Shown one piece after another: positions 1,462 through 16,752 of a DNA stretch of 19,461 nt. Position 1 is the stretch's first letter. Every line of letters begins with the position of its first letter. The notes under the pieces are model-generated. The model saw nothing but the letters and a program-made list of their open reading frames with translations, did no database searches and had not been told where the DNA came from. Both the position numbers and the translations under genes were made by a program. Source of the stretch: a virus (lineage: Duplodnaviria; Heunggongvirae; Uroviricota; Caudoviricetes); the IMG/VR virus record IMGVR_UViG_2671180427_000015, positions 1 to 19,461 of that record; one strand, given 5' to 3'.

Positions 1462-1627
1462 AACAAAAGCAATTCAATGCCGTCAAGAGGTTACAGGCTA
1501 AAAAAACTCTATTACATTGCAGTCAGCATGTTTACTACACAAATACAATTCAGAGCATAAAAACTACTCGGCGGCAGGTTATTGAGACTCATCAATGACA
1601 TGTAAAAAACGCCCATTATTGGTGTCA

Positions 1628-1656
1628 AGTTTCCCCAAAGTTATTCAAAAAGTCAA
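1628..1656 (-). promoter_or_regulatory. pR'-like late promoter with Q-utilisation region
   Basis: Minus strand reads TTGACT-17 nt-GAAACT then TTGACACCAATAATGGGCG, collinear with my recollection of lambda pR' (TTGACT...TAAATT TTGACTCAACGATGGG); lies 40 nt downstream of the Q stop. The -10 hexamer is degenerate. Confidence 0.45.
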
Positions 1657-1698
1657 TATTATGCCGTTAATATGTTGCCATCCGTGGCAATCATGGCG

Positions 1699-2322
1699 CT
1701 AACGTGTGATCGCATTCAAAATGTTGTCTGCGATTGACTCTTCCTTGTGGCATTGCACAACCAGAGCGTCATACAGCGGCTTAACAGTGCGTGACCAGGT
1801 GGGTTGGGTAAGGTTTGGGATTAGCATCGTCACAGCGCGATATGCGGCGCTTGCTGGCATTCTTGAATAACCGACGCCTTTACATCTTCCGCACTCTTTC
1901 TCAGCAACTATCCCCCACTGCTCTGTTTTGGCTATATCAACCGCACGGCCTGTACCGTGGCAATCTCTGCATCTTGCGCCCGGCGTAGCGGCACTACGGC
2001 AATAATCCGCATAAGCGAATGTTGCGAGCACTTGCAGTACCTTTGCCTTAGTATTTCCTTCAAGCTTTGCCACGCCACGGTATTTCCCCGATACCTTGTG
2101 TGCAAATTGCATCAGATAGTTGATAGCCTTTTGTTTGTCGTTCTGGCTGAGTTCGTGCTTACCACAGAATACAGCCATTCCGAATCCGGCTTGTGATTGC
2201 GCCATCCCCATAGCAGCCATCACATCAGTACCGGAAAGAGAGTCAGAAGCCGTGGCCCGTGGTGAGTCGCTCATCATCGGGCTTTTTGGCGAATGAAATT
2301 TAGCTACGCTTTCGAGTCTCAT
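1699..2322 (-). CDS. Q: Late-gene antiterminator Q
   Basis: 207-aa translation matches recalled lambda Q over its length; sits immediately upstream of the pR'-like promoter and overlaps the ninI stop by 4 nt. Confidence 0.9.
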
Positions 2323-2984
2323 GCGCCTTCTCCCTGTACCTGAATCAATGTGAGATTTCCGCAGAACACTGCCCCAGTATCGATATACATCTGGTTGGCA
2401 AATTTGAGTGGTTTCACTGCTGGCGTATGACCAAAGATAAACGTGTCCGCGCCTTTAATTTCTTTAACGATCCCGTCTTGTGAGTTGCTGATTCGTTCGC
2501 GGTTCCAGATTACCTGCTGATGATCAACTGGCTTTCCAAATTCGTATTCGTCACAAGGATAATCGGCGTGGCAGATGACATATTTTTTACCTTTGCTCAC
2601 CAGTTCGATGATTAACGGAAGTTCTTCTGCTTTATGGGCAAGAGCTTTAGCCAGAATTTCTTTGTCGTAATCGAGATTAAAGAACCAGCCACCGCCATTA
2701 AGCAGCCAGTGATTAACGTTTCCACGCTCTGATAAGCCATCAATCATCATTTGCTCATGGTTTCCACGTACAGCTCTGAACCAGGGGAATGTGATTAATT
2801 CCAGGCATTCAACGTTCTCTGCACCACGATCAACCAAATCGCCCACCGAGATAAGCAGGTCTTTTTTGTTGTCGAATCCAATCGTATCCAGTTTGTTCAT
2901 CAGGTTCGTGTAGCATCCGTGCAGATCGCCAACTACCCAAATATTTCGGTATTTGCTGCCATCAATTCTTTCGTAGATATTCAT
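2319..2984 (-). CDS. ninI: NinI (Nin221) Ser/Thr protein phosphatase
   Basis: 221 aa; PPP-family metallophosphatase motifs visible in translation (GDLHG, GDLVDRG, GNHE); matches recalled lambda NinI. Confidence 0.9.
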
Positions 2985-3595
2985 GCAGCCTCACTTCTGC
3001 TGTTTCGCAGTTTTTTAAGTTTCTGTTGATACTCCGCCTTGATGGTCCTGCACTCTTCGACAGTCCAGCGATGGCGGTTATGGTTTGATTCGATTTCGTC
3101 TACTGCTTCCTGCCCGATGCGGCTAATCAGTTCGACGCGATACGGAACGAGATTTCCGCTTTTGTGCTGGTTGCACACCACGCATTGCTTGTGAATATTG
3201 CGTTCATCAAATCGGAGTTGAGGTGCCGCAGCAGTTGTCCGGTAATGTCCGGCATCCCACTGAGCAGACGTGAGCGTTCCGCACGAGATACATGGTAAGT
3301 CGCGGTCTCTTTCTCTGATGAAGGCGTTTACGGCTTGTTGGGCTTGTTTAATCCAGTAACTGCGGGGCTTTAAGGCGAGTTTTCGAATCTTAAGTTTATC
3401 TTTCTGTTTCTGCTCCTCTCGTCGTCGTTTCTTCTCTGCTGCTTTTTCCGCTTTTTCGCGTTCTTTACTTCGTCGTTCGAGTGCTATCTTGGTTCCACAC
3501 TCTGGAGAGCACCACCACTGATTAGCGAATGCAGGGTGAAACCATTCCCGACATTCATCGTTTTTACATCGTCTTCGCGCTGGTTTAGCCATCAT
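2981..3595 (-). CDS. ninG: NinG (Rap) recombination-associated structure-specific endonuclease
   Basis: 204 aa, Cys-rich N-terminus and lysine/glutamate-rich linker; matches recalled lambda NinG. Directly abuts ninI, so lambda ninH is absent. Confidence 0.9.
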
Positions 3596-3755
3596 CTTCT
3601 TCCTCGTGCATCGAGCTATTCGAATCGCTCATCAGCTCTGCACAGCAGTGCTCACACACGTGAACTTCCAGCACATGCAGCTTCTGACCGCAATTAGCGC
3701 ACGTTAAAGCCCGCTCGACGCTTTCTTGTTCGTAACTTCGATTTGGGTCAATCAC
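3585..3755 (-). CDS. ninF: NinF-like small protein
   Basis: Translation ...[37 protein letters not shown]... matches recalled lambda NinF. Start placed at GTG 3753..3755 (GAGGA 8 nt upstream, GTGA overlap with ninE stop); the longer ORF to 3797 is the alternative. Confidence 0.65.
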
Positions 3756-3934
3756 CTTGTATTCCTCGCACGATGTCTTAGCCACCGGATATCCCACAGG
3801 TGAGCCGTGTAGTTGAAGGTTTTTACGTCAGATTCTTTTGGGATTGGCTTGCGTTTATTTCTGGAGCGTTTCGTTGGAAGGTATTTGCAGTTTTCGCAGA
3901 TTATGTCGGTGATGCTTCGTCGCTGTCGTCTCAT
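3752..3934 (-). CDS. ninE: NinE-like protein
   Basis: 60-aa translation [60 protein letters not shown] matches recalled lambda NinE; start chosen inside the 90-aa track ORF, overlapping the methyltransferase stop. Confidence 0.8.
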
Positions 3935-4458
3935 GCAGCCCTCCTGACGCCCTGCCCGATCGCCATCAATGCCGCTTTGGATACGGTAGTAAACATCCGT
4001 CGAGGACTGATGAACGGTCGCCAAATCAGCAGCATGGAGCCTTTGCTGTTTCCCTTCTTCTCCAGCCCTGTCGATGGTTCGATAAAATTAATCCGTCCAT
4101 CAGTGATAATACGAACTTCGTCAACACTCTCCAGAGCCTTGCTGAACCATCCGACAGACATATCCTCTGGCACAAGCATCACTACCGTCTGTCGCTGTTG
4201 TATACACTGCTCAGCGGCTTTTTCCACCCACGGCCTGATATTGCTGTACGGTGGGTTATTCCAGATTGCACCGTGGCTTACCCACTCAGAATTGAGCGCG
4301 TCGTCGTCCTCAGTTAGCCAGTGAGCGCACAGAGCGTTTTTGTCGCTCGCTGCCGAATCCAGCCAGAATCCAAACTCAATATCCAGTGCATCAAAAAGCC
4401 AAAGCGGCGTTTGCCAGCAGTCCTTGTCGTGTGCTGGCGTATTTGATTTGATAGTCAT
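3931..4458 (-). CDS. Orphan phage Dam-like DNA N6-adenine methyltransferase (occupies the lambda ninC/ninD position)
   Basis: Translation contains the N6-adenine MTase catalytic motif NPPY ([10 protein letters not shown]) and a WQTPxxLF-type N-terminal motif; start at ATG 4456..4458 in an ATGA overlap with the ninB stop. Confidence 0.7.
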
Positions 4459-4895
4459 GCAGCCCGATCTCCCCATCGCGCTTTCCATTCGAGAGCCAGT
4501 CGCGCTTCGTCTGACCACTTAACGCCACGCTCTGTACCGAATGCCTGTATAAGCTCTAATAGCTCCGCAAATTCGCTTACACGCATCCTGCTGGTTGACT
4601 GGCCTATTACCACAAAGCCATTCCCGGCAAGGTTAGGAACAACATCCTGCTGCTTTAATGCTGCGGTAAACACACACTTCCAGCTTTCTGCATCCAGCCA
4701 GCGACCATGCCATTCAACCTGACGAGAGACGTCACCTAAGCAGGCCCATAGCTTCCTGTTTTGGTCTAAGCTGCGGTTGCGTTCCTGAATGGTTACTACG
4801 ATTGGTTTGGTTGGGTCTGGAAGGATTTGCTGTACTGCGTGAATAGCGTTTTGCTGATGTGCCGGAGATCGAATTTCAAAGGTTAGTTTTTTCAT
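4455..4895 (-). CDS. ninB: NinB (Orf) recombination mediator
   Basis: 146 aa from MKKLTFEIRSPAHQQ..., matching recalled lambda NinB; GGAGAGGG Shine-Dalgarno upstream; the track ORF begins 6 codons earlier. Confidence 0.85.
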   Translation of the reverse strand: MKKLTFEIRSPAHQQNAIHAVQQILPDPTKPIVVTIQERNRSLDQNRKLWACLGDVSRQVEWHGRWLDAESWKCVFTAALKQQDVVPNLAGNGFVVIGQSTSRMRVSEFAELLELIQAFGTERGVKWSDEARLALEWKARWGDRAA

Positions 4896-4901
4896 GACTT
4901 C

Positions 4902-4932
4902 CCTCTCCCCCAAATAAAAAGGCCTGCGATTA
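4902..4932 (-). terminator. Intrinsic terminator, tR2-like, between ren and ninB
   Basis: On the minus strand a GC-rich 7-8 bp stem (GGCCTGC/GCAGGCC, loop GGTAATC) followed by TTTTTATTT. Confidence 0.6.
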
Positions 4933-4968
4933 CCTGCAGGCCTGTGATTAGCTCAGTGATGTAGATGG

Positions 4969-5259
4969 TCATCTTTTAACTCCATATACCGCCAATATCC
5001 GTTTCATCGTGGCACTCTGGCGACACTCCTTAAAAATCAGGTTCGTGCTCATCTTTCCTTCCCGTTCTTCCTTGGTAGCAAACCGGTAATACACCGTTCG
5101 CCAGACCTTACCTTCGATAACCAGAAGACCTGCCCGTGCCATTTTAGCCGCGGCCTGATTTATGCTGGTTACTGTTGCGCCTGTTAGCGCGGCAACGTCC
5201 GGCGCACAGAAGCTATTATGCGTCCCCAGGTAATGAATAATTGCCTCTTTGCCCGTCAT
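4969..5259 (-). CDS. ren: Ren
   Basis: 96-aa translation matches recalled lambda Ren; positioned between P and tR2/ninB. Confidence 0.85.
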   Translation of the reverse strand: MTGKEAIIHYLGTHNSFCAPDVAALTGATVTSINQAAAKMARAGLLVIEGKVWRTVYYRFATKEEREGKMSTNLIFKECRQSATMKRILAVYGVKR

Positions 5260-5957
5260 ACACTTGCTCCTTTCAGTCCGAACTTAGCTTTAATTTCTGC
5301 GATCTTCGCCAGCGCCTGAACACGATTTAGAGGTCTGCCGCCCATGACAGGAAGTTGTTTTATTGGTTCAGGTATCGTCTCACCACGGTTAATTCGCGCT
5401 GTCATACAGGTCAGTTCATCGGCAGCCTTGCGTCGTAATTCCGCGTCAGTCAGCGCATTGGCCCGCATGTTCTGGTACAGGTTGGTAACCAGCCAGTAGT
5501 GCGCGTTCGATTTCCACGGATAAGACTCTGCATCCGGATACAGGCCTCGCTTCCGGCAATACTCGTAAACCATATCAACCAGCTCGCTGACGTTTGGCAG
5601 TCCGGCGATAACGGATGCTTCTTCCCGGCACCATGCAACAAACTGCCCGGGTGATGGCAGAAATGGTCGATTCTGCCGACGGGCTACGCGCATTCCTGCG
5701 TTAACCTGTTCCATTGTGGTGATCCCGTTTTCCCGGAAAGCCAGAACCCACTGGCGGCGGATTTCGTTCAGTTCGTTCTGGTCACGGTTAGCCAGGCTCG
5801 CCGGGAAAGTTGCCAGTAACTGGCTGAACACACCGTTGATGATCTGCGCTACCTGCTGTACCTGAGGCTTTTCGTCGTACTGTTCCGGCATGTTGTTGGC
5901 GATCCGACGCATCTGCTCACGGTCAAAGTTAACCATCTGTGCGGCGATGTTTTTCAT
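5256..5957 (-). CDS. P: Replication protein P (DnaB helicase loader)
   Basis: 233-aa translation matches recalled lambda P; 4-nt overlap with O stop. Confidence 0.9.
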   Translation of the reverse strand: MKNIAAQMVNFDREQMRRIANNMPEQYDEKPQVQQVAQIINGVFSQLLATFPASLANRDQNELNEIRRQWVLAFRENGITTMEQVNAGMRVARRQNRPFLPSPGQFVAWCREEASVIAGLPNVSELVDMVYEYCRKRGLYPDAESYPWKSNAHYWLVTNLYQNMRANALTDAELRRKAADELTCMTARINRGETIPEPIKQLPVMGGRPLNRVQALAKIAEIKAKFGLKGASV

Positions 5958-6853
5958 AAATCCACCCCGTAAATCCAGTCAGTGTTTGTCAGGTCGAGTT
6001 TTGGTTTGCAGGCTGTCACGCCTGCCTGTTGCTTGTTACGGTTGATTTCGAGCTGGGTCCACTTGTCGCGGAGTTTGGCCGGGCTCAGCACGTTACCGGA
6101 CCAGAAGTTGTCCTGGCATGCCCAGCGGAACAGTACACACATGTCGCGATGGTTACGTCCGTCACGTTCACGCATCAGGCGGATATCGTTAGCCCACCCT
6201 GCAAAATTCGGTTTTCTGGCTGATGGCGCGATGGTCTTCACCATGTCAAACATCCACTCTGCGGCGGTCAGATCTTCTGCTGTCCCCCACCTGCTGCCGC
6301 TCTGAATTGCAGCATCTGGTTTCTCCACAGAAAGATCGTTTTCTGGCTGGTCAGAGGATTCGCCTGAATTCTCTGACGAATAATCTTTTCTTTTTTCTTT
6401 TGTAATAGTGTCTTTTGTGTCCCCCTGTTTTGAGGGATAGCAATCCCTCAATTTGAGGGATGTTTTATCCCTCGTTTTAGGGGATTTTCCCTCGTTTTGA
6501 GGGATACACCATTCTGAGATGTTTTTATTTGGTCCAAACATGCCGCCTTGCTGCTTGATAATATTCATTCTGACGAGTTCTAACTTGGCTTCATTGCACC
6601 GTTTGACGGGTAACTTTGTAATCTCGCTAAGTTGAGAATCGGTGATTCTGTCCATTGGTTTATTCCACCCATAGGTTTTACGCAGAATGGCAAGCAGCAC
6701 TTTAAACTGTCGCTTGGTCAGATCTGCGCCTGAATAAGCCTCAAGCAGCATATTTGATAGTCTGACGTAACCATCATCGAGATCTGCCACATTACGCTCC
6801 TGTTCGGCAAAGTTACCTCTGCCGAAGTTGAGTATTTTTGCTATATTTGTCAT
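5954..6853 (-). CDS. O: Replication initiator O
   Basis: 299-aa translation matches recalled lambda O; contains ori iterons internally. Confidence 0.9.
   Translation of the reverse strand: MTNIAKILNFGRGNFAEQERNVADLDDGYVRLSNMLLEAYSGADLTKRQFKVLLAILRKTYGWNKPMDRITDSQLSEITKLPVKRCNEAKLELVRMNIIKQQGGMFGPNKNISEWCIPQNEGKSPKTRDKTSLKLRDCYPSKQGDTKDTITKEKRKDYSSENSGESSDQPENDLSVEKPDAAIQSGSRWGTAEDLTAAEWMFDMVKTIAPSARKPNFAGWANDIRLMRERDGRNHRDMCVLFRWACQDNFWSGNVLSPAKLRDKWTQLEINRNKQQAGVTACKPKLDLTNTDWIYGVDL
6379..6506. repeat. Origin of replication (ori lambda type): four iterons plus adjacent AT-rich segment inside the O gene
   Basis: Four tandem ~20-bp units each containing an inverted TCCCTC...GAGGGA pair between about 6418 and 6506, flanked at 6379..6417 by a T-rich stretch (TCTTTTCTTTTTTCTTTTGTAATAG). 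Confidence 0.8.
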
Positions 6854-6885
6854 AATGACTCCTGTGGATTGATCCAGTAATTCCC

Positions 6886-7182
6886 TCAGAATTGCATATC
6901 AATTTGCTTAAAATCCTCGGTGGCAGCCGGGGATTTTTTCTTTGTGATTTCATCAAGCGCATACTTAAAAGCCCTGCTAATCGGACTGATGTCTGATGCC
7001 ATTCCGAAAGCACACAAGACCGAAGCAATAAATCTCCAGTCCGTTCTGCTTATCTTCGATTCATGACAGCCAATCATCTTTGCCAAACCGCGCTGTGTAA
7101 GCGTTGATAGGTTGATGAGTAAATCTGTTTCTGCGCGATCAACGTCACGCTGTGATAGTTTGCTGTAACTTGTTCGTTCCAT
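6886..7182 (-). CDS. CII-family lysogeny transcriptional activator (not the lambda allele)
   Basis: 98 aa; C-terminal ...KKKSPAATEDFKQIDMQF resembles lambda CII C-terminus (...KKRPAATERSEQIQMEF); located directly downstream of cro and nutR. Confidence 0.7.
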   Translation of the reverse strand: MERTSYSKLSQRDVDRAETDLLINLSTLTQRGLAKMIGCHESKISRTDWRFIASVLCAFGMASDISPISRAFKYALDEITKKKSPAATEDFKQIDMQF

Positions 7183-7268
7183 TTCTTAATATTTCCAATA
7201 GTGAATTGTTAGTTGACAGGTATGCGTGGAAACGCATATGGCCTTAGTTGGTCAGATATCTTGGGACT

Positions 7269-7313
7269 CGCTTTTCAGCGACGTAGGACGAATGTCCGTT
7301 GTTACAAAGAGCG
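7269..7313 (-). promoter_or_regulatory. nutR-like N-utilisation site (boxA plus boxB hairpin)
   Basis: Minus strand reads CGCTCTTTGTAACAA (boxA-like) then, 18 nt later, CGCTGAAAAGCG (short stem with GAAAA-containing loop), between cro and cII. Confidence 0.5.
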
Positions 7314-7323
7314 GCTCCGCTTA

Positions 7324-7539
7324 TTAAGCGGCTTTGTGTTCCGGCGGGAACACGTCATCAAGACTTACTTTTGCGCCTAACTTGTTTAGGCACGCAACAA
7401 GAGCACGGCATGTTTTAAGGTCTGGGAAGCGACGACCAGATTCCCAATGTCCGATAGCTCCCTGTGTGCATCCAACTGCTTTAGCAAGTTTCGTTTGAGA
7501 GATATTCAGTGACTCTCGATATTTTCGTAGGTTGCTCAT
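7324..7539 (-). CDS. cro: Cro-like HTH repressor (not the lambda allele)
   Basis: 71 aa from internal Met (MSNLRKYRESLNISQTKLAKAVGCTQGAIGHW...) with GGAGGA Shine-Dalgarno at 7543..7548; divergent from cI across an operator region. The 128-aa track ORF would overlap the operators and cI. Confidence 0.75.
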   Translation of the reverse strand: MSNLRKYRESLNISQTKLAKAVGCTQGAIGHWESGRRFPDLKTCRALVACLNKLGAKVSLDDVFPPEHKAA

Positions 7540-7570
7540 ATGTCCTCCGTAGTAACCACGAATAAAAAAA

Positions 7571-7639
7571 TACAATATGTACTCACCAAACACAAGTAAA
7601 AATACATATTGTGCATGGATGGTTCCAGTACAGAGCGTA
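7571..7639. promoter_or_regulatory. Right operator/promoter region (candidate OR sites with divergent pR and pRM)
   Basis: Three related 11-bp elements of form TAC-N5-GT(A/G): TACAATATGTA (7571..7581), TACATATTGTG (7603..7613), TACAGAGCGTA (7629..7639), lying between divergent cro and cI starts. Confidence 0.5.
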
Positions 7640-7656
7640 ATAATAAGGATATGAAA

Positions 7657-8310
7657 ATGAAATGGTATGAACTGGCTAGATCCAGAATGAAAGAGCTCGG
7701 CATAACTCAAGAGAAGTTAGCCGAAGAGCTAGGTATGACGCAGGGTGGAATTGGACACTGGTTGCGCGGATCTCGTCATCCATCTCTTAGTGATATTGGT
7801 GTGGTGTTTAAATACCTTGGTATTGATAACATATCATTCAACCACGACGGGACATTTTCACCTGTTGGCGAATACTCATCGGCCCCAGTTAAAAAACAAT
7901 ATGAGTACCCTGTTTTTTCTCATGTTCAGGCTGGGATGTTCTCTCCAGAACTCAGAACCTTTACCAAAGGCGATGCGGAGAGATTGGTAGGCACAACCAA
8001 AAAAGCCAGTGACTCTGCATTCTGGCTTGAGGTTGAAGGTAACTCAATGACCGCACCAACAGGTTCCAAACCTAGTTTTCCTGACGGGATGTTAATTCTG
8101 GTTGACCCTGAGCAAGCTGTTGAGCCCGGCGATTTCTGCATAGCCAGACTTGGTGGTGATGAATTTACCTTCAAGAAACTGATCAGGGATAGCGGTCAGG
8201 TGTTTCTACAGCCACTAAACCCACAATACCCAATGATCCCATGCAATGAGAGTTGTTCCGTTGTTGGGAAAGTTATCGCTAGTCAGTGGCCTGAAGAGAC
8301 GTTTGGGTGA
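7657..8310 (+). CDS. cI: CI prophage repressor, mosaic: non-lambda N-terminal HTH domain fused to lambda-type S24 (LexA-like) C-terminal domain
   Basis: C-terminal ~130 aa ([19 protein letters not shown]...EVEGNSM...FKKL...[12 protein letters not shown]) matches recalled lambda CI; N-terminal ~85 aa is unrelated to lambda CI. Start placed at ATG 7657 (AAGGA 7 nt upstream); the track ORF starts at 7609. Confidence 0.85.
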
Positions 8311-8380
8311 TGAAGGGCTAAATGTCTCCTAATAAAAACAGCAATCATTTGAAATTATTAATAATTATAGAGGTTTAGTC

Positions 8381-9379
8381 TTGGAAATCAGCACGGCGGT
8401 TATTCATTCCGAAGAAGATGCTTTGCGTTTTGTTGAGATGTACATCGCTGGGCAAGATCTTCCTGATGGAATATCATTTGAAGGGTGGCCTAACTTAACC
8501 TTCCGTCTTACTGGTGACAAATTTCATGGCAGTTTGACTCCTTCTGTCATGAAGGGTTTTGTTGAAATGCAGGCCCAAATAAACCGAGCTTATGCATTGT
8601 TAAAGTACGGAGTTCCTGACCCAAGAAAGCTTTCAAAAGAAGAGAAGGAAGCTATCGAAATTCAGGTGAATGTTGAGAATGGCTCGTCCTTGATAGAAGT
8701 TAATATGGATGGGTTCATGGGTGAGGTTATACAAACTGCGGTGAGTAAAGTGGGCCCTCAAGAGATCGTTATTACAGTTTTAGGGGTCGCTCTTATATGG
8801 GGCGGCGTCGTCCTATTCAAAAAATACCTAGAAGACCGCAAAGAGATTCGCATGGCAGAAGTAAAAAGCGAGTCTGAGCGTGAACACCTTGCGACCATGC
8901 GCTTCATGTCTGAGCAGGAAACAAAACGAAGTGAATTATTGACTCAGATTATTAGCGAAAAACCCAAGCTAGACAACATGGAAAGACTTGCTCATGACGC
9001 AAAAACCGACATAGTTAAATCATTTGTCAAGGCTGATACAGCTCAGATTGATGGCGTTGTATTGGATGCAGATCTATCCAAAACCCTCACTACAAATGCA
9101 AGGCGGAAATCAATGGAGATCCGCCTTGATGGAAATTATCGCATTGAAAAGGTTGACTCCACTGATCCAGAGAGCTTCAAAGTGCAAGTGAGAAATGTTG
9201 ATTCCGATCTAAGAATATCGTGCATAGTACAAGATGTTTTTCTCGACGCATCCGAGCATAAAAAAGCTCTTCAGCAAGCTGAGTGGGATAGAAAACCAGT
9301 TCATTTGTCAATCAACGCAAAAGAACTAGATGGTGAAATAAAGTCCGCGATAATACTTTATGTCAAAGAGATAACATAA
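8381..9379 (+). CDS. Immunity-region cargo protein of unknown function with one central hydrophobic helix (in the position lambda uses for rexA-rexB)
   Basis: 332-aa ORF with TTG start 7 nt after AGAGG; AT-rich; 70 nt downstream of cI on the same strand and followed by an intrinsic terminator; hydrophobic segment IVITVLGVALIWGGVVLF mid-protein; no similarity to RexA/RexB that I can recognise. Confidence 0.6.
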   Translation: MEISTAVIHSEEDALRFVEMYIAGQDLPDGISFEGWPNLTFRLTGDKFHGSLTPSVMKGFVEMQAQINRAYALLKYGVPDPRKLSKEEKEAIEIQVNVENGSSLIEVNMDGFMGEVIQTAVSKVGPQEIVITVLGVALIWGGVVLFKKYLEDRKEIRMAEVKSESEREHLATMRFMSEQETKRSELLTQIISEKPKLDNMERLAHDAKTDIVKSFVKADTAQIDGVVLDADLSKTLTTNARRKSMEIRLDGNYRIEKVDSTDPESFKVQVRNVDSDLRISCIVQDVFLDASEHKKALQQAEWDRKPVHLSINAKELDGEIKSAIILYVKEIT

Positions 9380-9386
9380 TCCTCAT

Positions 9387-9412
9387 CCCGGCCTCAGCGC
9401 CGGGTTTTCTTT
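9387..9412 (+). terminator. Intrinsic terminator ending the cI-cargo transcription unit
   Basis: CCCGGC-CTCAGC-GCCGGG hairpin followed by TTTTCTTT, 8 nt after the ORF stop. Confidence 0.6.
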
Positions 9413-9601
9413 GCCTCACGATCGCTTCACCTAAAAACACATAACCAATTGTATTTATTTGAAAATAAATAGATACAACTCACTAAACCACGCAATTCTG
9501 ATCTCTCCTTACATCGCCGAGGCAATACACCCATGCTAAAAAACAATACTATTAAATACAAAGCGTTGTAAAAAACCACCTCGTTTTAAGAACAAATTGT
9601 A

Positions 9602-9630
9602 TTGATAAAGCAAAATACATATCGTACTAT
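9602..9630 (+). promoter_or_regulatory. pL-like promoter with overlapping operator
   Basis: TTGATA -17 nt- TACTAT; the element TACATATCGTA (9616..9626) matches the OR-type TAC-N5-GTA sites and overlaps the spacer/-10. Confidence 0.45.
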
Positions 9631-9676
9631 TTAACCATCAGCAGGACGCTGGAAGCCAAACGGAACAAACTGGCAG

Positions 9677-9722
9677 GCTCTTTAAACAACGTCGAACTCT
9701 CGACTACGTGGCTGAAAAGCCA
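9677..9722 (+). promoter_or_regulatory. nutL-like site (boxA plus boxB hairpin)
   Basis: GCTCTTTAAACAA (boxA-like) followed 19 nt later by TGGCTGAAAAGCCA (4-bp stem, TGAAAA loop), upstream of N. Confidence 0.5.
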
Positions 9723-9819
9723 GATCACCCAACCACATGAGCTGTGGGATGCAATGCCGAAGCAACCGTCTAGGAGTAGCTTCGAGATTGCATCGCCAAA
9801 GTTTATTCGGGAGGAATCT

Positions 9820-10092
9820 ATGTCCAGAAAAACAGAATTTAAAGGCACCGCAGCTTCTCGCCGTAGAGCTCGTCGCGCAAATCTGCAAAGTCAGGAGGCG
9901 ATTAGCTCCGACAAACTACACAGGCCAACCCCCTCACGAGTGGTCTTGCAATGCAAACGCAAACCAGCAATGAGAGCAGAAGTAATAACACTGACAACGT
10001 TGACCAGAAAATATGAAGGCTCAACTTGTCTTCCAAATGTAGCTCTTTACGCGGCAGGCTACAGGAAATCAAAACAACTGACAGCAAGGTGA
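9820..10092 (+). CDS. N: N-like transcription antiterminator (arginine-rich motif; not lambda N)
   Basis: 90 aa from ATG 9820 (GGGAGG upstream); N-terminal arginine-rich motif GTAASRRRARRANLQ; first gene after pL/nutL. C-terminus resembles what I recall of the P22 gene 24 product, but that recollection is unverified. Confidence 0.7.
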   Translation: MSRKTEFKGTAASRRRARRANLQSQEAISSDKLHRPTPSRVVLQCKRKPAMRAEVITLTTLTRKYEGSTCLPNVALYAAGYRKSKQLTAR

Positions 10093-10150
10093 CTTGTGTT
10101 GATCGCCAGAAAATGAAATTAGGCATCAAACCACTTATTTGAGGTGATAT

Positions 10151-10237
10151 ATGGAAGAAGAATTTGAAGAGTTCGAAGAGCATCCTCAGGATGTGATGGA
10201 ACAATACCAGGACTATCCTTATGACTACGACTATTGA
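10151..10237 (+). CDS. Small acidic protein, lambda orf28-like
   Basis: 28 codons (MEEEFEEFEEHPQDVMEQYQDYPYDYDY) with GAGGTG Shine-Dalgarno; overlaps the ral start as lambda orf28 does. Confidence 0.5.
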   Translation: MEEEFEEFEEHPQDVMEQYQDYPYDYDY

Positions 10238-10445
10238 TAAAAATCAATGGTGTGGACAATTCAAGCGATGCAATGGATGCAAGCTGCAATCGGAATGCAT
10301 GGTTAAGCCTGAAGAAATGTTTCCTGTAATGGAAGATGGGAAATATGTCGATAAATGGGCAATACGAACGACGGCAATGATTGCCAGAGAACTTGGTAAA
10401 CAGAACAACAAGGCTGCCTGGTGGTGGCCTTTATTTTTGGCATAA
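10221..10445 (+). CDS. ral: Ral restriction-alleviation protein
   Basis: First 66 aa match recalled lambda Ral (MTTTIDKNQWCGQFKRCNGCKLQSECM...); this ORF reads on for 8 more codons (WWWPLFLA) before the stop. Confidence 0.8.
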   Translation: MTTTIDKNQWCGQFKRCNGCKLQSECMVKPEEMFPVMEDGKYVDKWAIRTTAMIARELGKQNNKAAWWWPLFLA

Positions 10446-10603
10446 ACAACAGAATAAACACTGCACTGTGTATTCATTCCAACAAGTGAATACACGGAGC
10501 AATGTCGCTCGTAACCAAACAGGAGCCGACTTGTTCTGATTATTGGAAATCTTCTTTGCCCTCCAATATGAGGGCGATTTTTTATCTGTGAGGATATGAA
10601 CAG

Positions 10604-10972
10604 ATGTCAAACATCAAAAAATACATCATTGATTACGACTGGAAAGCATCAATAGAAATTGAAATCGACCATGACGTAATGACAGAGGAAAAACTTCACC
10701 AGATTAATAATTTCTGGTCAGACTCTGAATACCGACTCAATAAACACGGCTCTGTATTAAATGCTGTATTAATCATGCTGGCGCAACATGCTCTGCTTAT
10801 AGCAATTTCAAGCGACTTAAATGCATATGGTGTTGTGTGTGAGTTCGACTGGAATGATGGAAATGGTCAGGAAGGATGGCCTCCAATGGATGGTAGTGAA
10901 GGAATAAGAATTACCGATATCGATACATCAGAAATATTTGATTCAGATGATATGACTATCAAGGCCGCCTGA
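10604..10972 (+). CDS. ea10: Ea10 (Ssb)-like early protein
   Basis: 122-aa translation matches recalled lambda Ea10 in size, position (between ral and cIII) and sequence. Confidence 0.7.
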   Translation: MSNIKKYIIDYDWKASIEIEIDHDVMTEEKLHQINNFWSDSEYRLNKHGSVLNAVLIMLAQHALLIAISSDLNAYGVVCEFDWNDGNGQEGWPPMDGSEGIRITDIDTSEIFDSDDMTIKAA

Positions 10973-11044
10973 GCGCGGCGTTACCGCATACCAATTACGC
11001 TTCACTCGAGGCGTTTTTCGTTATGTATAAATAAGGAGCACACC

Positions 11045-11209
11045 ATGCAATATGCCATTGCAGGGTGGCCTGTTGCTGGCTGCCCTTCCGAATCTTTACT
11101 TGAACGAATCACCCGTAAATTACGTGACGGATGGAAACGCCTTATCGACATACTTAATCAGCCAGGAGTCCCAAAAAATGGATCAAACAATTATGGCTAT
11201 CCAGACTAA
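11045..11209 (+). CDS. cIII: CIII (FtsH/HflB protease inhibitor)
   Basis: 54-aa translation [54 protein letters not shown] with AAGGAG Shine-Dalgarno; not in the ORF track (<60 aa). Confidence 0.85.
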   Translation: MQYAIAGWPVAGCPSESLLERITRKLRDGWKRLIDILNQPGVPKNGSNNYGYPD

Positions 11210-11321
11210 ATTCACTATCGCCACTTTTATTGGCGATGAAAAGATGTTTCGTGAGGCCGTCGACGCTTATAAAAAATGGATATTAATACTGAAACTGAGA
11301 TCAAGCAAAAGCATTCACTAA
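11178..11321 (+). CDS. kil: Kil (host cell-division inhibitor)
   Basis: 47-aa translation [47 protein letters not shown], the in-frame 3' part of the 89-aa track ORF; overlaps the cIII 3' end as in lambda. Confidence 0.8.
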
Positions 11322-11396
11322 CCCCCTTTCCTGTTTTCCTAATCAGCCTGGCATTTCGCGGGCGATATTTTCACAGCCATTTTCAGGAGTTCAGCC

Positions 11397-11693
11397 ATGA
11401 ACGCTTATTACATTCAGGATCGTCTTGAGGCTCAGAGCTGGGCGCGTCACTACCAGCAGATCGCCCGTGAAGAGAAAGAGGCAGAACTGGCAGACGACAT
11501 GGAAAAAGGCCTGCCCCAGCACCTGTTTGAATCGCTATGCATCGATCATTTACAACGCCACGGGGCCAGCAAAAAAGCCATTACCCGTGCGTTTGATGAC
11601 GATGTTGAGTTTCAGGAGCGCATGGCAGAACACATCCGGTACATAGTTGAAACCATTGCTCACCATCAGGCTGATATTGATTCAGAGGTATAA
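11397..11693 (+). CDS. gam: Gam (RecBCD inhibitor)
   Basis: 98-aa translation matches recalled lambda GamS; CAGGAG Shine-Dalgarno. Confidence 0.9.
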
Positions 11694-11698
11694 AACGG

Positions 11699-12484
11699 AT
11701 GAGTACAGCACTCGCAACGCTGGCAGGGAAGCTGGCTGAACGTGTCGGCATGGATTCTGTCGACCCACAGGAACTGATCACCACTCTTCGCCAGACGGCA
11801 TTTAAAGGTGATGCCAGCGATGCGCAGTTCATCGCATTGCTGATCGTCGCCAACCAGTACGGCCTTAATCCGTGGACGAAAGAAATTTACGCCTTCCCTG
11901 ATAAGCAGAACGGCATTGTTCCGGTGGTGGGCGTTGATGGCTGGTCCCGCATCATCAATGAAAACCAGCAGTTTGATGGCATGGACTTTGAGCAGGACAA
12001 TGAATCCTGTACATGCCGGATTTACCGCAAGGACCGCAATCATCCGATCTGCGTTACCGAGTGGATGGATGAATGCCGCCGCGAACCATTCAAAACCCGC
12101 GAAAGCAGAGAAATCACGGGGCCGTGGCAGTCGCATCCCAAACGGATGTTACGGCATAAAGCCATGATTCAGTGTGCCCGTCTCGCCTTCGGATTTGCTG
12201 GTATCTATGACAAGGATGAAGCCGAGCGCATTGTCGAAAATACCGCATACACTGCAGAACGTCAGCCGGAACGCGACATCACTCCGGTTAACGATGAAAC
12301 CATGCAGGAGATTAACACTCTGCTGATTGCCCTGGATAAAACATGGGATGACGACTTATTGCCGCTCTGTTCCCAGATATTTCGCCGCGACATTCGCGCA
12401 TCGTCAGAACTGACACAGGCCGAAGCAGTGAAAGCTCTTGGATTCCTGAAACAGAAAGCCACTGAGCAGAAGGTGGCTGCATGA
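11699..12484 (+). CDS. bet: Bet (Red-beta single-strand annealing protein)
   Basis: 261-aa translation matches recalled lambda Bet throughout. Confidence 0.95.
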
Positions 12485-13161
12485 CACCGGACATTATCCT
12501 GCAGCGTACCGGAATCGACGTGAGAGCTGTCGAACAGGGGGATGATGCGTGGCACAAATTACGGCTCGGCGTCATCACCGCTTCAGAAGTTCACAATGTG
12601 ATAGCAAAGCCCCGCTCAGGAAAGAAGTGGCCTGACATGAAAATGTCCTACTTCCACACCCTGCTGGCTGAGGTTTGCACCGGTGTGGCTCCGGAAGTTA
12701 ATGCTAAGGCGCTGGCCTGGGGAAAACAGTACGAGAACGACGCCAGAGCCCTGTTTGAGTTCACTTCCGGCGTGAATGTTACTGAATCCCCGATCATCTA
12801 TCGCGACGAAAGTATGCGCACCGCCTGCTCTCCCGATGGTTTATGCAGTGACGGCAACGGCCTTGAACTGAAATGCCCGTTTACCTCCCGGGATTTCATG
12901 AAATTCCGGCTCGGTGGTTTCGAGGCCATAAAGTCGGCTTACATGGCCCAGGTGCAGTACAGCATGTGGGTAACGCGAAAAGATGCCTGGTACTTTGCCA
13001 ACTATGACCCACGAATGAAGCGTGAAGGCCTGCATTATGTCGTGGTTGAGCGGGATGAAAATTACATGGCGAGTTTTGACGAGATGGTGCCGGAGTTCAT
13101 CGAAAAAATGGACGAGGCACTGGCTGAAATTGGTTTTGCATTTGGGGAGCAATGGCGATGA
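12481..13161 (+). CDS. exo: Exo (Red-alpha 5'-3' exonuclease)
   Basis: 226-aa translation matches recalled lambda Exo; 4-nt overlap with bet. Confidence 0.95.
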
Positions 13162-13340
13162 AGCATCCTCACGATAATATCCGGGTAGGCACGATCACTT
13201 TCGTCTACTCCGTTACAAAGCGAGGCTGGGTATTTCCCGGCCTTTCTGTTATCCGAAATCCCCTGAAAGCACAGCGGCTGGCTGAGGAGATAAATAATAA
13301 ACGAGGGGCTGTATGCACAAAGCATCTCCTGTTGAGTTAA
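13158..13340 (+). CDS. orf60a: orf60a-like protein
   Basis: 60 aa from the second in-frame ATG (ATGA overlap with exo stop); matches recalled lambda orf60a. Confidence 0.6.
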
Positions 13341-13504
13341 GAACGAGCATTGAGATGGCACATAGCCTTGCTCAAATTGGAGTCAGGTTTGTGCCAATAC
13401 CAGTAGAAACAGACGAAGAATTTCATACGTTAGCCACATCCCTTTCACAAAAGCTGGAAATGATGGTGGCGAAAGCAGAAGCAGATGAGAGAGACCAGGT
13501 ATGA
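13313..13504 (+). CDS. orf63: orf63-like protein
   Basis: 63-aa ORF in the lambda orf63 position; sequence consistent with recollection. Confidence 0.6.
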   Translation: MHKASPVELRTSIEMAHSLAQIGVRFVPIPVETDEEFHTLATSLSQKLEMMVAKAEADERDQV

Positions 13505-13580
13505 CAACCACGGAATGCATTTTTCTGGCAGCGGGCTTCATATTCTGTGTGCTTATGCTTGCCGACATGGGACTTGTTCA

Positions 13581-13796
13581 ATGACACCTCAGCAGGAAAA
13601 CGCCCTTCGCAGCATTGCCCGTCAGGCTAATTCTGAAATCAAAAAAGCCAGACAGCAGTTTCCGGATAAAAACGTCGATGACATTTGCCGTAGCGTACTG
13701 AAGAAGCACCGCGAAACGGTAACGCTGATGGGATTCACACCGACTCATTTAAGCCTGGCAATCGGCATGTTAAACGGCGTCTTTAAGGAACGATGA
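13581..13796 (+). CDS. orf61: orf61-like protein
   Basis: 71 aa from MTPQQENALRSIARQANSEIKKARQQF...; placed at the internal ATG, which overlaps (ATGA) the stop of a 27-codon upstream ORF. Confidence 0.55.
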   Translation: MTPQQENALRSIARQANSEIKKARQQFPDKNVDDICRSVLKKHRETVTLMGFTPTHLSLAIGMLNGVFKER

Positions 13797-13817
13797 ACAT
13801 GAAAAGCAAAATCATCA

Positions 13818-13842
13818 GGGAGCTACAGGCTCCTTTTTTATT
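13818..13842 (+). terminator. Intrinsic terminator (tL-type) after orf61-like
   Basis: GGGAGC-TACAG-GCTCC(U) hairpin followed by TTTTTTATT. Confidence 0.55.
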
Positions 13843-13894
13843 ATTCGCATTCACCCTCAAGCGTATTAACCAACAATTCAGGGATTAATGGAAG

Positions 13895-14116
13895 ATGGCA
13901 GACATCATTGATTCAGCATCAGAAATTGAAGAATTACAGCGCAACACAGCAATAAAAATGCGCCGCCTGAACCACCAGGCTATATCTGCCACTCATTGTT
14001 GTGAGTGTGGCGATCCGATAGATGAACGAAGACGCCTGGTCGTTCAGGGTTGTCGGACTTGTGCAAGTTGCCAGGAGGATCTGGAGCTTATCAGTAAACA
14101 GAGAGGTTCGAAGTGA
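13895..14116 (+). CDS. TraR/DksA-family C4 zinc-finger protein
   Basis: 73 aa with two CxxC pairs (CCECG...CRTCASC) in the spacing typical of the TraR/DksA zinc finger. Confidence 0.65.
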   Translation: MADIIDSASEIEELQRNTAIKMRRLNHQAISATHCCECGDPIDERRRLVVQGCRTCASCQEDLELISKQRGSK

Positions 14117-14520
14117 GCGAAATTAACTCTCAGGCACTGCGTGAAGCGGCAGAGAAAGCCGGTGAAGATAAGTGGCAGGCTAAAAAAATAAATGGTGATT
14201 TTTTCGTTATTCGTCACGGTAGTTATACAAGACAGCATGGCTACACATCGTATCAACCCATTGCGGAGATTGATTGTAAGCCAGTCCGGGATTTTGTTGC
14301 CAAGGCTAATCCGGCTACCGTGCTGGAATTACTGGATGAACTGGAAGCAGCAAAAAAGCGCATTGCAGAACTGGAAGCGCGGGAAATACTGCTCCCGGAA
14401 CGTAGCAGCATGCTTCATCGAACAGATTTTCACGATGATTACCAAACGGTAATGGCATACAAAGTTTCTGAAGTCATCGATGCAATCCGCGCTACTGGCA
14501 TTCGCATCAAAGGAGAGTGA
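14113..14520 (+). CDS. Ea22-like protein (shorter than lambda Ea22)
   Basis: GTG start in a GTGA overlap with the upstream stop, GAGAGG Shine-Dalgarno; N-terminus MSEINSQALREAAEKA... and C-terminus ...GIRIKGE agree with recalled lambda Ea22 termini; central coiled-coil-like LELLDELEAAKKRIAELEARE. Confidence 0.6.
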   Translation: MSEINSQALREAAEKAGEDKWQAKKINGDFFVIRHGSYTRQHGYTSYQPIAEIDCKPVRDFVAKANPATVLELLDELEAAKKRIAELEAREILLPERSSMLHRTDFHDDYQTVMAYKVSEVIDAIRATGIRIKGE

Positions 14521-14521
14521 G

Positions 14522-15277
14522 ATGATTCACTACCACGGTGGGCCTATTACTCCTGATACGTGCGCAATGAGAGCATGGAAAGGGCGACATGCGTTTATCA
14601 GTTTTGCGCATTCAGGCCAGATCAATCTCGCGGCTGAATACTGTCAGTCGTTCGCGCTGGACAACGGTGCATTCACCGCCTGGAAAGCAGCTGGCAAAAA
14701 CAAAATCGACTGGAGCGATTACTACGAGTTTGTTGCTCGCTGGAAGAATCACCCAGGATTCGATTTTGCCATTATCCCGGATATTATTGATGGCGGAGAG
14801 GAGGAAAATGATGCGCTTCTGAATGAGTGGCCTCACGGAAAACTAGCTGGCGTTCCAGTGTGGCACATGAATGAAAGTGACGCGCGATTTATTCATTTGT
14901 GCAATGAGTTTCCGCGAGTGGCTATCGGTAGTTGTGGCGACTATGACGTAAAGCGCCCAACTCTTGCGGTAGCCAGAATGAAAGACCTGATTCGTCACAT
15001 TGTTGATGGGCATGGTCAGCCGGTTACGAAACTACATGGATTGCGCATGTTAAATCCGCTGATATTCACAAAATTACCCTTAGCCAGCGCAGATAGTACG
15101 AACGTCGCTCGAAACATCGGTATTGATAAAGCCTGGTCTGGGGCTTATGCACCTGCAAGTAAAGAGACACGCGCAGCATTAATGGTAGAACGGATTGAGG
15201 CACACAATAGCCCTGGTTCTCTTGCGTATTGTGAACAACGCGACCGCTTTGAAATGCAATTGCAACTAGCAGTTTAA
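14522..15277 (+). CDS. Candidate queuine tRNA-ribosyltransferase-fold protein (DpdA-like 7-deazaguanine DNA transglycosylase candidate)
   Basis: 251 aa from ATG 14522 (AGGAG 6 nt upstream). Five collinear segments resemble recalled E. coli Tgt motifs: LDNGAF (TDSGGF), FAIIPD (MIFDEC), VAIGS (YAVGG), LHGLRML (YLMGVG), ADSTNVARN (FDCVMPTRNARN). No zinc-binding C-terminal subdomain. Functional call unverified. Confidence 0.5.
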   Translation: MIHYHGGPITPDTCAMRAWKGRHAFISFAHSGQINLAAEYCQSFALDNGAFTAWKAAGKNKIDWSDYYEFVARWKNHPGFDFAIIPDIIDGGEEENDALLNEWPHGKLAGVPVWHMNESDARFIHLCNEFPRVAIGSCGDYDVKRPTLAVARMKDLIRHIVDGHGQPVTKLHGLRMLNPLIFTKLPLASADSTNVARNIGIDKAWSGAYAPASKETRAALMVERIEAHNSPGSLAYCEQRDRFEMQLQLAV

Positions 15278-15287
15278 GGACTAACAA

Positions 15288-16085
15288 ATGACCACTATTA
15301 CCAAAGAACGTATTGAATTGTTCATTAAAAATCCGCTTGAAAACGGGCTTACTCGTGGCGAACAAATGGAACTGGCACGAATTGCACTGGCATCACTGGA
15401 ACGCGAACTGATTCGCCACGAGCATGCCAAATGGTCTGACTCCACATTTGGCTGCGTTGGCCCCATTGGTCCACTGAAACACCTCTCAAAAGAGGCTCTG
15501 GAAGCCGCAGCCGAACCAGACGATCTCAGCTAGTGGGCTGATATGCATTTCCTGTTGTGGGATGCACAGCGCCGTGCTGGCATCAGCGATGCTGAAATTA
15601 CCGCTGCTATGGAAGATAAATTGAAGATCAACATGGAGCGCCAGTGGCCTGAACCAAAAGATGGTGAGCCTCGCTTGCACATTAAAGAACCCGGCAACTC
15701 TCCGGTAATTCCGGATGGTTTATCCACGGTATGCGCTGAGGCTTATCAGGTTGTAGGAGTTATGGCAGATGCGCTTGGTGTATTCGGTGATGCAGCAGTA
15801 CAGAAAGTTCTGGATAACCTGTCACAGCAAAAACTTGTTCACAGAGATGTGCTGCCGTTCTCGCTTCCGGTGACTCCGGATGGTTGGATAAGCTGTAGTG
15901 AGCGAATGCCGAAAGAAACGGGTGACATTATTGTTGTTTCGGATGGCATTGTAATGTCCGGGATTTCTTATTCTCGTCGTGACGGGTTCTATATAGCCGC
16001 ATTGGAGTACGACGACGATGAGCCAATTGGCGGTGTAACCCACTGGATGCCTCTACCAGAACCGCCTCGATTAAAGGAGCTATAA
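15288..16085 (+). pseudogene. MazG-like NTP pyrophosphohydrolase / DUF551 reading frame interrupted by an in-frame amber codon (TAG 15531..15533)
   Basis: Track ORFs 15288..15533 and 15543..16085 are in the same frame, separated by TAG plus three sense codons; a MazG-like helix pattern (...EALEAAAEPDDLS * WADMHFLLWDAQRRAGISDAEITAAMEDKLKINMERQW) spans the stop; C-terminal ...HWMPLPEPP is DUF551-like. No convincing Shine-Dalgarno before the downstream ATG. Confidence 0.5.
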
Positions 16086-16199
16086 TAGTGAACTATTATA
16101 TCTATTTGTATTAAAAGAGTTTTTATAAAATAAATCTCCCAAAGCATGTAAAAACACTGTTAATCTTAACGTGTGTGAAACGTGAAGAGAGGTGTTGAA

Positions 16200-16481
16200 A
16201 TGAGCATTCATGATTTGTGTGAAGATCAAGAGCAATGGGCTATGCAGACCCTTATGGGATCAGGAGTTCTTGCAAGGTGCAGAATCCATAACGATGTAAT
16301 TTTAGACAGCGGAAATGATGCTTCTTCTGCTTATAAATTAGGAACTTACCTATATCAAAAAGATAATAGCTGCAACTTATTCAATACTCTTACTGAAGCC
16401 CGCGACGCAATAAAGGATGCATATGAATCGTATTGTGGGATCGATGATTGCCCACAATGCTCAAAATACATTGACGATTAA
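16200..16481 (+). CDS. Ea8.5-like protein
   Basis: 93 aa from ATG 16200 (AGAGAGG upstream), the same length as lambda Ea8.5 and the same position relative to xis; shares the Cys/His pattern and C-terminal ...CPxC.K.IDD with recalled Ea8.5; AT-rich. Confidence 0.6.
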   Translation: MSIHDLCEDQEQWAMQTLMGSGVLARCRIHNDVILDSGNDASSAYKLGTYLYQKDNSCNLFNTLTEARDAIKDAYESYCGIDDCPQCSKYIDD

Positions 16482-16501
16482 TAATATGAACAAGTAACTA
16501 T

Positions 16502-16557
16502 CCTCGCACTCGCGGGGATTTCTTTTATCTGAACTCGCTACGGCGAGTTTTGTTTTA
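16502..16557 (+). terminator. Two tandem intrinsic terminators after the Ea8.5-like gene
   Basis: CCTCGC-ACTC-GCGGGG followed by ATTTCTTTT (16502..16526), and AACTCGC-TACG-GCGAGTT followed by TTGTTTT (16532..16557). Confidence 0.5.
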
Positions 16558-16569
16558 TGGCGATGATAA

Positions 16570-16737
16570 ATGCACTTCCGAGTTACAGGTGAATGGAATG
16601 GAGAACCATTCAACAGAGTTATCGAAGCCGAGAACATCAGCGACTGCTATGACCACTGGATGCTGTGGGCGCAGATAGCACATGCAGACGTAACCAATAT
16701 TCGAATTGAAGAACTGAAAGAACACCAAGCCGCCTGA
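16570..16737 (+). CDS. Small hypothetical protein (55 aa) between two terminators upstream of xis
   Basis: ATG 16570 to TGA 16735..16737, translation MHFRVTGEWNGEPFNRVIEAENISDCYDHWMLWAQIAHADVTNIRIEELKEHQAA; weak ribosome-binding site; stop codon lies in the loop of the following terminator. Confidence 0.4.
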   Translation: MHFRVTGEWNGEPFNRVIEAENISDCYDHWMLWAQIAHADVTNIRIEELKEHQAA

Positions 16738-16752
16738 TGGCGGTTTTTTCTT
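16729..16752 (+). terminator. Intrinsic terminator immediately upstream of xis
   Basis: GCCGCC-TGAT-GGCGG(T) hairpin followed by TTTTTTCTT. Confidence 0.55.

Follow-up and report, generated by a model that had tools for sequence, protein, structure and literature searches.

We analysed a 19,461-nucleotide stretch of Caudoviricetes DNA (IMG/VR virus record IMGVR_UViG_2671180427_000015, positions 1 to 19,461; this whole stretch is referred to below as the window), in which an open reading frame (ORF) for a protein of 332 amino acids (aa) lies between the repressor gene cI and the antiterminator gene N. Oriented with cI and N on the plus strand, the window represents the early region of a lambdoid prophage and matches phages 2B8, 434 and lambda with 97% identity over 56–73% of its length. 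Genes and sites follow each other in the order cII, cro, OR, cI, a 70-nucleotide (nt) spacer, the ORF, a terminator, OL-like operators with a pL-like promoter, a nutL-like site and N. The ORF and the features directly adjoining it are:

7615–8310, plus strand: cI repressor, 231 aa from the ATG at 7615 (HTH_3 and Peptidase_S24 domains)
8312–9386, plus strand: exchanged cassette, a 70-nt AT-rich leader and the 332-aa ORF (blastn against lambda)
8370–8374, plus strand: Shine-Dalgarno sequence GAGGT, 6 nt 5' of the TTG start codon (direct sequence reading)
8381–9379, plus strand: ORF of the 332-aa protein, 999 nt with a TTG start (ORF list and translation)
9387–9414, plus strand: intrinsic terminator with a 6-bp all-GC stem, a 6-nt loop and a T-rich tail (9387–9404 and the T run; scan and homology to lambda)

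The cassette between cI and the terminator

For the blastn alignment of the window with lambda, the lambda sequence was reverse-complemented to bring cI onto the plus strand. Homology stopped at position 8311, a single nucleotide beyond the cI stop codon. It restarted at position 9387, equivalent to lambda 35824 and again one nucleotide beyond a stop codon, here that of rexB. A cassette of 1075 bp (8312–9386) stands in place of the 1401-bp rexA-rexB segment of lambda. The original prediction had assigned the ORF to the slot used by lambda for rexAB; the coincidence of both junctions with the ends of the rexA-rexB cassette proves, at the nucleotide level, that the ORF cassette is an exact substitute for rexA-rexB. 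The terminator, by contrast, had been taken for the ORF's own, and this had to be given up. As lambda homology restarts exactly there, after rexB, the terminator is a component of the conserved lambda-type flank, and its sequence adjoins unrelated cargo in at least 100 phage records and about 800 Escherichia coli genomes.

The description of the gene as a 332-codon, TTG-initiated ORF with a Shine-Dalgarno sequence, 70 nt past cI on the cI strand, agreed with both the sequence and independent annotation. The same 999-nt coding sequence was called by the NCBI Prokaryotic Genome Annotation Pipeline (PGAP) in E. coli JNE132847, and homologues of the protein share its start position in the alignment, so that coordinates and description can be regarded as correct. 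A sequence scan of the 70-nt gap between the cI stop codon (8308–8310) and the ORF revealed no terminator-like site. For cI itself, the mechanical ORF list gives an in-frame TTG at 7609 as the start.

The ORF had also been called AT-rich, which applies relative to the replication genes of the prophage but not relative to its immediate neighbours: its G+C content is 0.42 (cI, 0.455; N, 0.476), and its G+C content at third codon positions 0.39 (cI, 0.42; N, 0.385). Given this similarity to the neighbouring genes composition adds little, and we rejected it as a sign of recent acquisition.

At 99.5–99.7% identity, the gene is present in 9 of 5426 complete E. coli genomes. In the one of these nine that was examined, E. 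coli JNE132847, it lies directly 3' of a cI that is identical to lambda cI at 231 of 237 positions; judged by its sequence, this locus is an imm-lambda prophage with rexAB exchanged. An IS3-family element is inserted beside the N region of JNE132847 (positions 10841–12177 of locus L001), of which a 69-nt remnant alone is left, annotated as 'regulator'. The prophage, probably defective, retains an intact repressor-cargo pair.

The cI gene of the window is a chimera, with an N-terminal DNA-binding half of the O157 Sakai Sp5 type and a C-terminal half that is essentially lambda cI. The cro-cI segment matches Sp5-type cro-cI at 96% of nucleotides; positions 7900–8311 are 93% identical to lambda cI at the DNA level, and the C-terminal half of the protein is nearly identical. 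Left-hand homology for exchange of the cargo cassette probably comes from the conserved 3' half of cI. Among complete E. coli genomes, none carries the window's own combination of cI and cargo.

The interval between cI and N has been described as a mosaic hotspot (PMC3564112; Owen et al., 10.1101/2020.07.13.199331). In rexAB, the tyrosine kinase gene stk of 933W, hex of 434 and bstA it harbours accessory genes that are transcribed with the repressor; most of these four act to exclude other phages, Hex having an additional damping effect on RecA-mediated induction (PMC3564112; 10.1101/2020.07.13.199331). A survey of lambdoid prophages for the content of the slot between cI and pL, which the original prediction had proposed, revealed varied cargo between the same flanks. 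With the cro-cI and N flanks of the window we found ECs_1184 of Sakai Sp5 (a 173-aa hypothetical protein), an NYN-domain gene with a truncated ORF, and a gene for an SDH-family Clp-fold serine protease with a 56-aa ORF (loci L099, 1783–2304; L100, 1408–2265; and L101, 1353–2426), and the imm-lambda phages mEp234 and HK106 carry hicAB in the slot.

Family, predicted build and genomic settings

The 332-aa protein matched PHROG 6191, a family of unknown function, nearly end to end (E = 1.1e-137; residues 4–331 against profile positions 6–334 of 338). A sequence search yielded 122 full-length homologues and a profile search 1552 clusters at 50% identity; 598 of these lay below E = 1e-30, and almost all had lengths of 320–360 aa. 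A scan of representative genomes with the single protein returned three loci. The named members come from Enterobacterales, Pasteurellaceae, Moraxella, Pseudomonas, Oceanospirillaceae, Comamonas, Acidovorax, Chromobacterium and Caballeronia, and the family thus ranges over Gamma- and Betaproteobacteria. The cluster of at least 90% identity to which the protein belongs covers Salmonella, Klebsiella, E. coli and Raoultella, which shows that the gene has spread horizontally in recent times. A variant with 63% identity is present in 86 further E. coli genomes, and the family as a whole in approximately 95 of the 5426 complete ones.

None of these relatives leads to a characterised protein. Pfam gave no match above threshold (only aRib, at 17.9 bits against a cut-off of 27), 52 family members had no Pfam family in common, and eight atypically long or distant ones pointed to no known family. 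NCBIfam and a profile search of PDB sequences gave no match, a profile search of a collection of 5.8 billion proteins retrieved no named or domain-annotated relatives, and no published study of the protein was found in the literature. The statement that it does not resemble RexA, RexB or SieB of lambda was upheld by hhalign comparisons of the family profile, with probabilities of 0.08%, 0.19% and 0.23%, respectively; the value for BstA (st313-td) of phage BTP1 was 0.53%. The profile searches and structure prediction suggested in the original prediction therefore ended in no characterised family and in confident AlphaFold models. From these comparisons, the ORF is to be read as a genuine gene, its family being large but uncharacterised.

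Two AlphaFold runs with different alignments (run 1: predicted local distance difference test score, pLDDT, 86.3, predicted template modelling score, pTM, 0.82; run 2: pLDDT 94.0, pTM 0.81) agreed in the following parts of the protein:

8381–8755, plus strand: N-terminal alpha/beta domain, about aa 1–125 (AlphaFold secondary structure, conservation)
8765–8818, plus strand: hydrophobic helix IVITVLGVALIWGGVVLF, aa 129–146 (Kyte-Doolittle, family conservation)
8819–9031, plus strand: highly charged helical region, aa 147–217, 44% K/R/E/D (AlphaFold, composition)
9113–9370, plus strand: C-terminal OB-fold domain, aa 245–330 (AlphaFold)

The models confidently predict this four-part build, and the family is read as sharing it in fixed form. 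Its most conserved part is the N-terminal domain, with the motif GWPxLTxRLxGxKF..S[IL]TPxVMKGFVE[LM]Q, a GSS motif and the conserved polar residues E11, T53, Q64, E88 and G101-S102-S103. The single central hydrophobic helix foreseen from the sequence was recovered as residues 129–146, the first part of a long predicted helix (126–160) in which the small residues G135, A137, G141 and G142 are kept. The C-terminal region had been described as charged; this fits the charged helices but not the end of the protein, which is a confidently predicted OB-fold reached through a beta hairpin and a short helix. The OB domain is modelled as a five-stranded beta-barrel with a helix between strands 3 and 4, is superposable on known OB-folds and has conserved residues R241, Y253, E301, W302, R304 and N312. 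No signal peptide, lipobox or surface-protein feature was detected in the protein.

The combination of domains is apparently new. A Foldseek search of the PDB with the whole protein gave nothing at E ≤ 1e-3, and known OB-fold domains (SilF/CusF, B subunits of AB5 toxins, SSB/PriB/RecO/RPA) resemble one domain only, at 4–18% identity. In the viral structure library BFVD, Foldseek aligned three proteins over approximately 320 columns (E ≈ 1e-5): a DUF6575 protein of Siphoviridae sp. ctoic9, Q6NE06 of Leptospira phage LE1 and a protein of Myoviridae sp. ctLIM9. The alignments suggest the same domain order, but TM-scores were 0.23–0.30 and identities 9–12%, and all three are uncharacterised. DUF6575 itself had no Pfam match in the 332-aa family.

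We sorted 98 family loci by their neighbouring genes via clustering. The family gene was located directly 3' of a cI-type repressor on the same strand in 19 loci and beside the Q antiterminator gene on the opposite strand in 52, the remaining 27 being assigned to neither class by the clustering. At least four different repressors precede it, among them repressors of 243 aa and 226 aa in two Yersinia prophages; in Moraxella phage Mcat17 it follows an unannotated gene that occupies the repressor position and diverges from a small cro-like ORF. It was further found in the repressor-side operon of Mu-like prophages, including those of Pseudomonas, at the end of a P2-like myovirus prophage, next to an IS1595 transposase gene (one copy) and, in Caballeronia, as a chromosomal singleton. 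In Oceanospirillaceae it lies in an integrative island, directly 5' of the gene for a restriction-modification enzyme of Type ISP, with a GmrSD fragment nearby; a same-sized ORF 5' of this copy was considered as a tandem paralogue and rejected, being unrelated.

In one PGAP-annotated E. coli locus of the Q type the order is Q, the family gene in antisense, a small ORF, a methyltransferase gene, essD and rrrD. The Q-adjacent copies that we examined lay antisense between Q and the lysis genes, with strong terminator-like hairpins on the late strand just past the gene (relevant segments: L012, 2102–2157; L014, 3730–3752; L108, 4022–5041). In these cases the gene appears to be located within the late leader region or adjacent to it, and would be opposed there by late transcription. 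The corresponding accessory position of the window prophage, from Q to the lysis genes, is taken by an unannotated 252-aa ORF (703–1461, minus strand). As late transcription proceeds, this ORF comes directly after Q (1699–2322, minus strand); it gave a match to PHROG 1521 (unknown function) and none to Pfam.

No partner gene was conserved across these settings, which marks the family gene as an autonomous one-gene accessory cassette. Alternative cargo at the same site, exact junctions and several insertion sites are all features of prophage accessory genes, and the ORF is a genuine horizontally mobile single-gene cassette ('moron') of temperate phages. Its proposed horizontal acquisition is borne out by this distribution as lone cargo in lambdoid, Mu-like and P2-like prophages.

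Possible roles in the lysogen

The gene is most probably transcribed together with cI from pRM in the lysogen, given that no terminator intervenes and that lambda, 434 and 933W provide precedents. The reading we favour is that of a lysogen-expressed single-protein phage-defence gene, to which we assign a probability of about 0.5. An anti-superinfection role is suggested by where the gene lies here, by the other sites it occupies and by a restriction-enzyme gene beside one copy. As a probable defence gene in the hotspot between cI and N it would be of a well-known kind, the protein family itself being uncharacterised.

Several known systems can be set beside it. RexB has four transmembrane segments, and the Rex system acts by depolarising the membrane to exclude T4 rII and further phages. 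Lambda RexA/RexB share with the 332-aa protein the identical place, from 1 nt past the cI stop codon to the post-rexB terminator, the expression from the pRM transcript in lysogens (presumed for our gene), and a hydrophobic, membrane-type element combined with soluble domains; they differ in being two proteins instead of one, and in the four membrane spans of RexB as against one hydrophobic helix. BstA of Salmonella phage BTP1, a single-protein prophage abortive-infection system (Owen et al., 10.1101/2020.07.13.199331), is likewise encoded by a single gene directly 3' of the repressor and before N, with a terminator, and has about 300 aa; its family also occurs 3' of repressors in diverse Gram-negative prophages. 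In contrast to BstA, the 332-aa family is not bound to the repressor locus, most copies being elsewhere, and no aba-like self-immunity element is known for it. Stk of 933W and Hex of 434 are accessory gene products of the cI/pRM transcript as well, and exclude heterologous phages (PMC3564112). By their descriptions both are set apart: Stk is a eukaryotic-like kinase, whereas Pfam detects no kinase domain in the 332-aa protein, and Hex is small and in addition prevents RecA-mediated cleavage.

As to how a single chain might do the job of RexA and RexB, we tentatively propose, as the likeliest, a sense-and-kill mechanism, which in this specific form is possible but doubtful. The OB-fold, the N-terminal domain or both would recognise a feature of infection, for example a phage protein or a nucleic-acid intermediate. 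Whether it resides in the inner membrane from the outset or enters it on activation, the hydrophobic helix would then assemble via its small-residue face and compromise the membrane, so that infection is aborted. In a variant that we consider unlikely, the protein would be a latent soluble abortive-infection device, its uncharged helix buried at rest in a compact fold in the manner of pore-forming colicins or Bcl-2-type proteins. Binding of a phage nucleic-acid intermediate or protein by the OB-fold or N-terminal domain would release the helix, and the freed helix would insert into the inner membrane, oligomerise via the small-residue face and depolarise the cell.

A number of results weigh against a defence role or against parts of this mechanism. 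None of the 5027 hidden Markov models of PADLOC-DB v2.0.0 matched the protein at E ≤ 1, and no source annotates it beyond 'hypothetical'. PADLOC also matched none of the three alternative cargos tested and none of the tested neighbours, so that guilt by association rests on a few classical cases; the Oceanospirillaceae island was the only non-prophage context with known defence genes that we encountered. Scans for sigma-70 promoters 5' of the gene, in the window and at three other loci, gave nothing above shuffled expectation. The best structural neighbours of the OB-fold are periplasmic or secreted binders of sugars or metals as much as nucleic-acid binders. A constitutive transmembrane state, finally, meets three difficulties. 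The Kyte-Doolittle (KD) value of the hydrophobic segment has a median of 1.73 and reaches at least 1.6 in 68% of 254 relatives, and the approximate insertion energy is negative in 32% of the family. In the 15-residue flanks of the helix, the 254 relatives have 4.04 K+R after it and 1.89 before it. By the positive-inside rule the C-terminal side would be cytoplasmic and a 125-aa N-terminal domain without signal peptide would be outside, and the models, with pTM above 0.8, place the N- and C-terminal domains in a fixed compact arrangement.

Membrane anchoring is accordingly only a prediction from sequence, strong for this member and marginal across the family. In the 332-aa protein the hydrophobic segment has a KD value of 2.33 over 19 residues, compared with 0.65 for the next-best 19-residue window, and an approximate insertion free energy of -2.2 kcal/mol, compared with a family median of +0.66 (a simple sum of Hessa scale values). 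Aligned positions 128–146 contain no or one charged residue in 245 of the 254 relatives, position 128 accounting for most. Mean-field direct-coupling analysis of the 254 sequences (effective number, Meff, 199) recovered intradomain strand and helix contacts; interdomain pairs made up 17 of the top 60 against approximately 44% expected, no excess over random, and were discarded as evidence. Three readings of the helix remain: a constitutive anchor, a buried helix, or insertion on activation.

Superinfection exclusion at the envelope, with survival of the infected cell, would require a single inner-membrane span and one periplasmic domain, plausibly the OB-fold, that blocks DNA injection or binds a tail, tape-measure or glycan component. 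We consider this fairly unlikely. The positive-inside bias puts the C-terminal side in the cytoplasm, the N-terminal domain has no signal peptide for export, and the pTM of 0.81–0.82 implies models in which the two domains are fixed relative to each other and not across a bilayer. Conservation over the full length, in Gamma- as well as Betaproteobacteria and in phages of lambdoid, Mu-like and P2-like type, would moreover be unusual for a protein that targets a receptor or the injection machine. A modulator of lysogeny or induction like 434 Hex, tuning RecA-dependent repressor cleavage or stabilising the prophage, might make use of a possibly single-stranded DNA-binding OB-fold, but is improbable: most family members are not beside a repressor, 52 of the 98 loci being antisense beside Q, and the gene follows at least four different repressors. 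Chromosomal singletons and restriction-gene neighbours make tuning of a cognate repressor implausible, and the hydrophobic helix would be left unexplained.

The accessory position, the wide occurrence in clinical Enterobacteriaceae, including Salmonella Typhi and Klebsiella, and the possible membrane association would also suit lysogenic conversion that benefits the host in matters other than phages (for instance envelope stress, colonisation or virulence). Such functions are thought to be conferred by bor and lom, and st313-td (bstA) was first suggested to act likewise. For the present gene there is only a small chance of this, since the protein lacks a signal peptide, lipobox or surface-protein feature, and the family extends to environmental Betaproteobacteria, marine Oceanospirillaceae and Mu-like and P2-like phages; bstA, formerly tied to virulence, itself proved to be a defence gene (10.1101/2020.07.13.199331). 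The TTG start and the missing annotation could be taken to indicate a chance ORF or a decaying, functionless remnant, which is refuted by the 1552 clusters, the full-length motifs and the highly confident predicted fold, and whose probability we put next to nil.

The interval between cI and N is among the oldest known homes of prophage defence (Rex, Stk, Hex, BstA), and we regard the gene as a clean candidate for a further case, not yet a discovery. If it does protect the lysogen, it would constitute a compact single-gene system, amenable to E. coli K-12/lambda genetics, and would lend itself to comparison with Rex, whose mechanism is still poorly understood. If it does so as a latent soluble device, a single new fold, spread over lambdoid, Mu-like and P2-like prophages, would unite RexA-like sensing with RexB-like killing. 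The other unannotated cargos of the slot would be further defence candidates.

Flanking sites and remaining genes of the window

The regulatory sites and genes that flank cI and the cassette are:

7324–7539, minus strand: cro-like helix-turn-helix (HTH) gene, divergent from cI (HTH/Cro-type NCBIfam matches; annotated as helix-turn-helix transcriptional regulator in near-identical E. coli prophages)
7567–7614, no strand assigned: OR operator region with AATACA(A/T)AT.GT repeats that recur 3' of the cargo (pattern search, repeats D4/I2/I4)
9443–9630, plus strand: OL-like operators and pL-like promoter, TTGATA-17-TACTAT at 9602–9630 (scan; repeats common to OR)
9679–9704, plus strand: nutL-like site, boxA-like GGCTCTTTAA followed by a boxB-like hairpin at 9691–9704 (hairpin scan)
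9820–10092, plus strand: N antiterminator, 90 aa with an arginine-rich N terminus (phrog_271 'anti-termination protein N-like', E = 4e-25)

The pattern AATACA(A/T)AT.GT has two matches (7601–7614 and 9614–9627), a number reached in none of 200 shuffles. The assignment of boxA and boxB is putative and based on resemblance to the nut sites of lambda, and N is annotated as such in near-identical prophages.

Further genes were noted at a distance from the cassette. A phage Dam-type N6-adenine methyltransferase is encoded in the nin region (3931–4518, minus strand). A 265-aa ORF (14480–15277, plus strand) has no Pfam match and covers only positions 7–267 of 509 in PHROG 887 (queuine tRNA-ribosyltransferase); it may be a truncated or diverged accessory gene on the b-region side. 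The left arm contains a fusion-like ORF (15543–16085, plus strand) with a dATP/dGTP pyrophosphohydrolase fragment and DUF551. A 356-aa ORF (16973–18043) is probably the integrase gene, as homologous phages annotate an integrase at that place. Past this putative integrase, a pectinesterase-family gene (18178–19461) runs off the end of the window; it resembles host ybhC beside the lambda attachment site, and the window therefore probably spans the junction of prophage and host.

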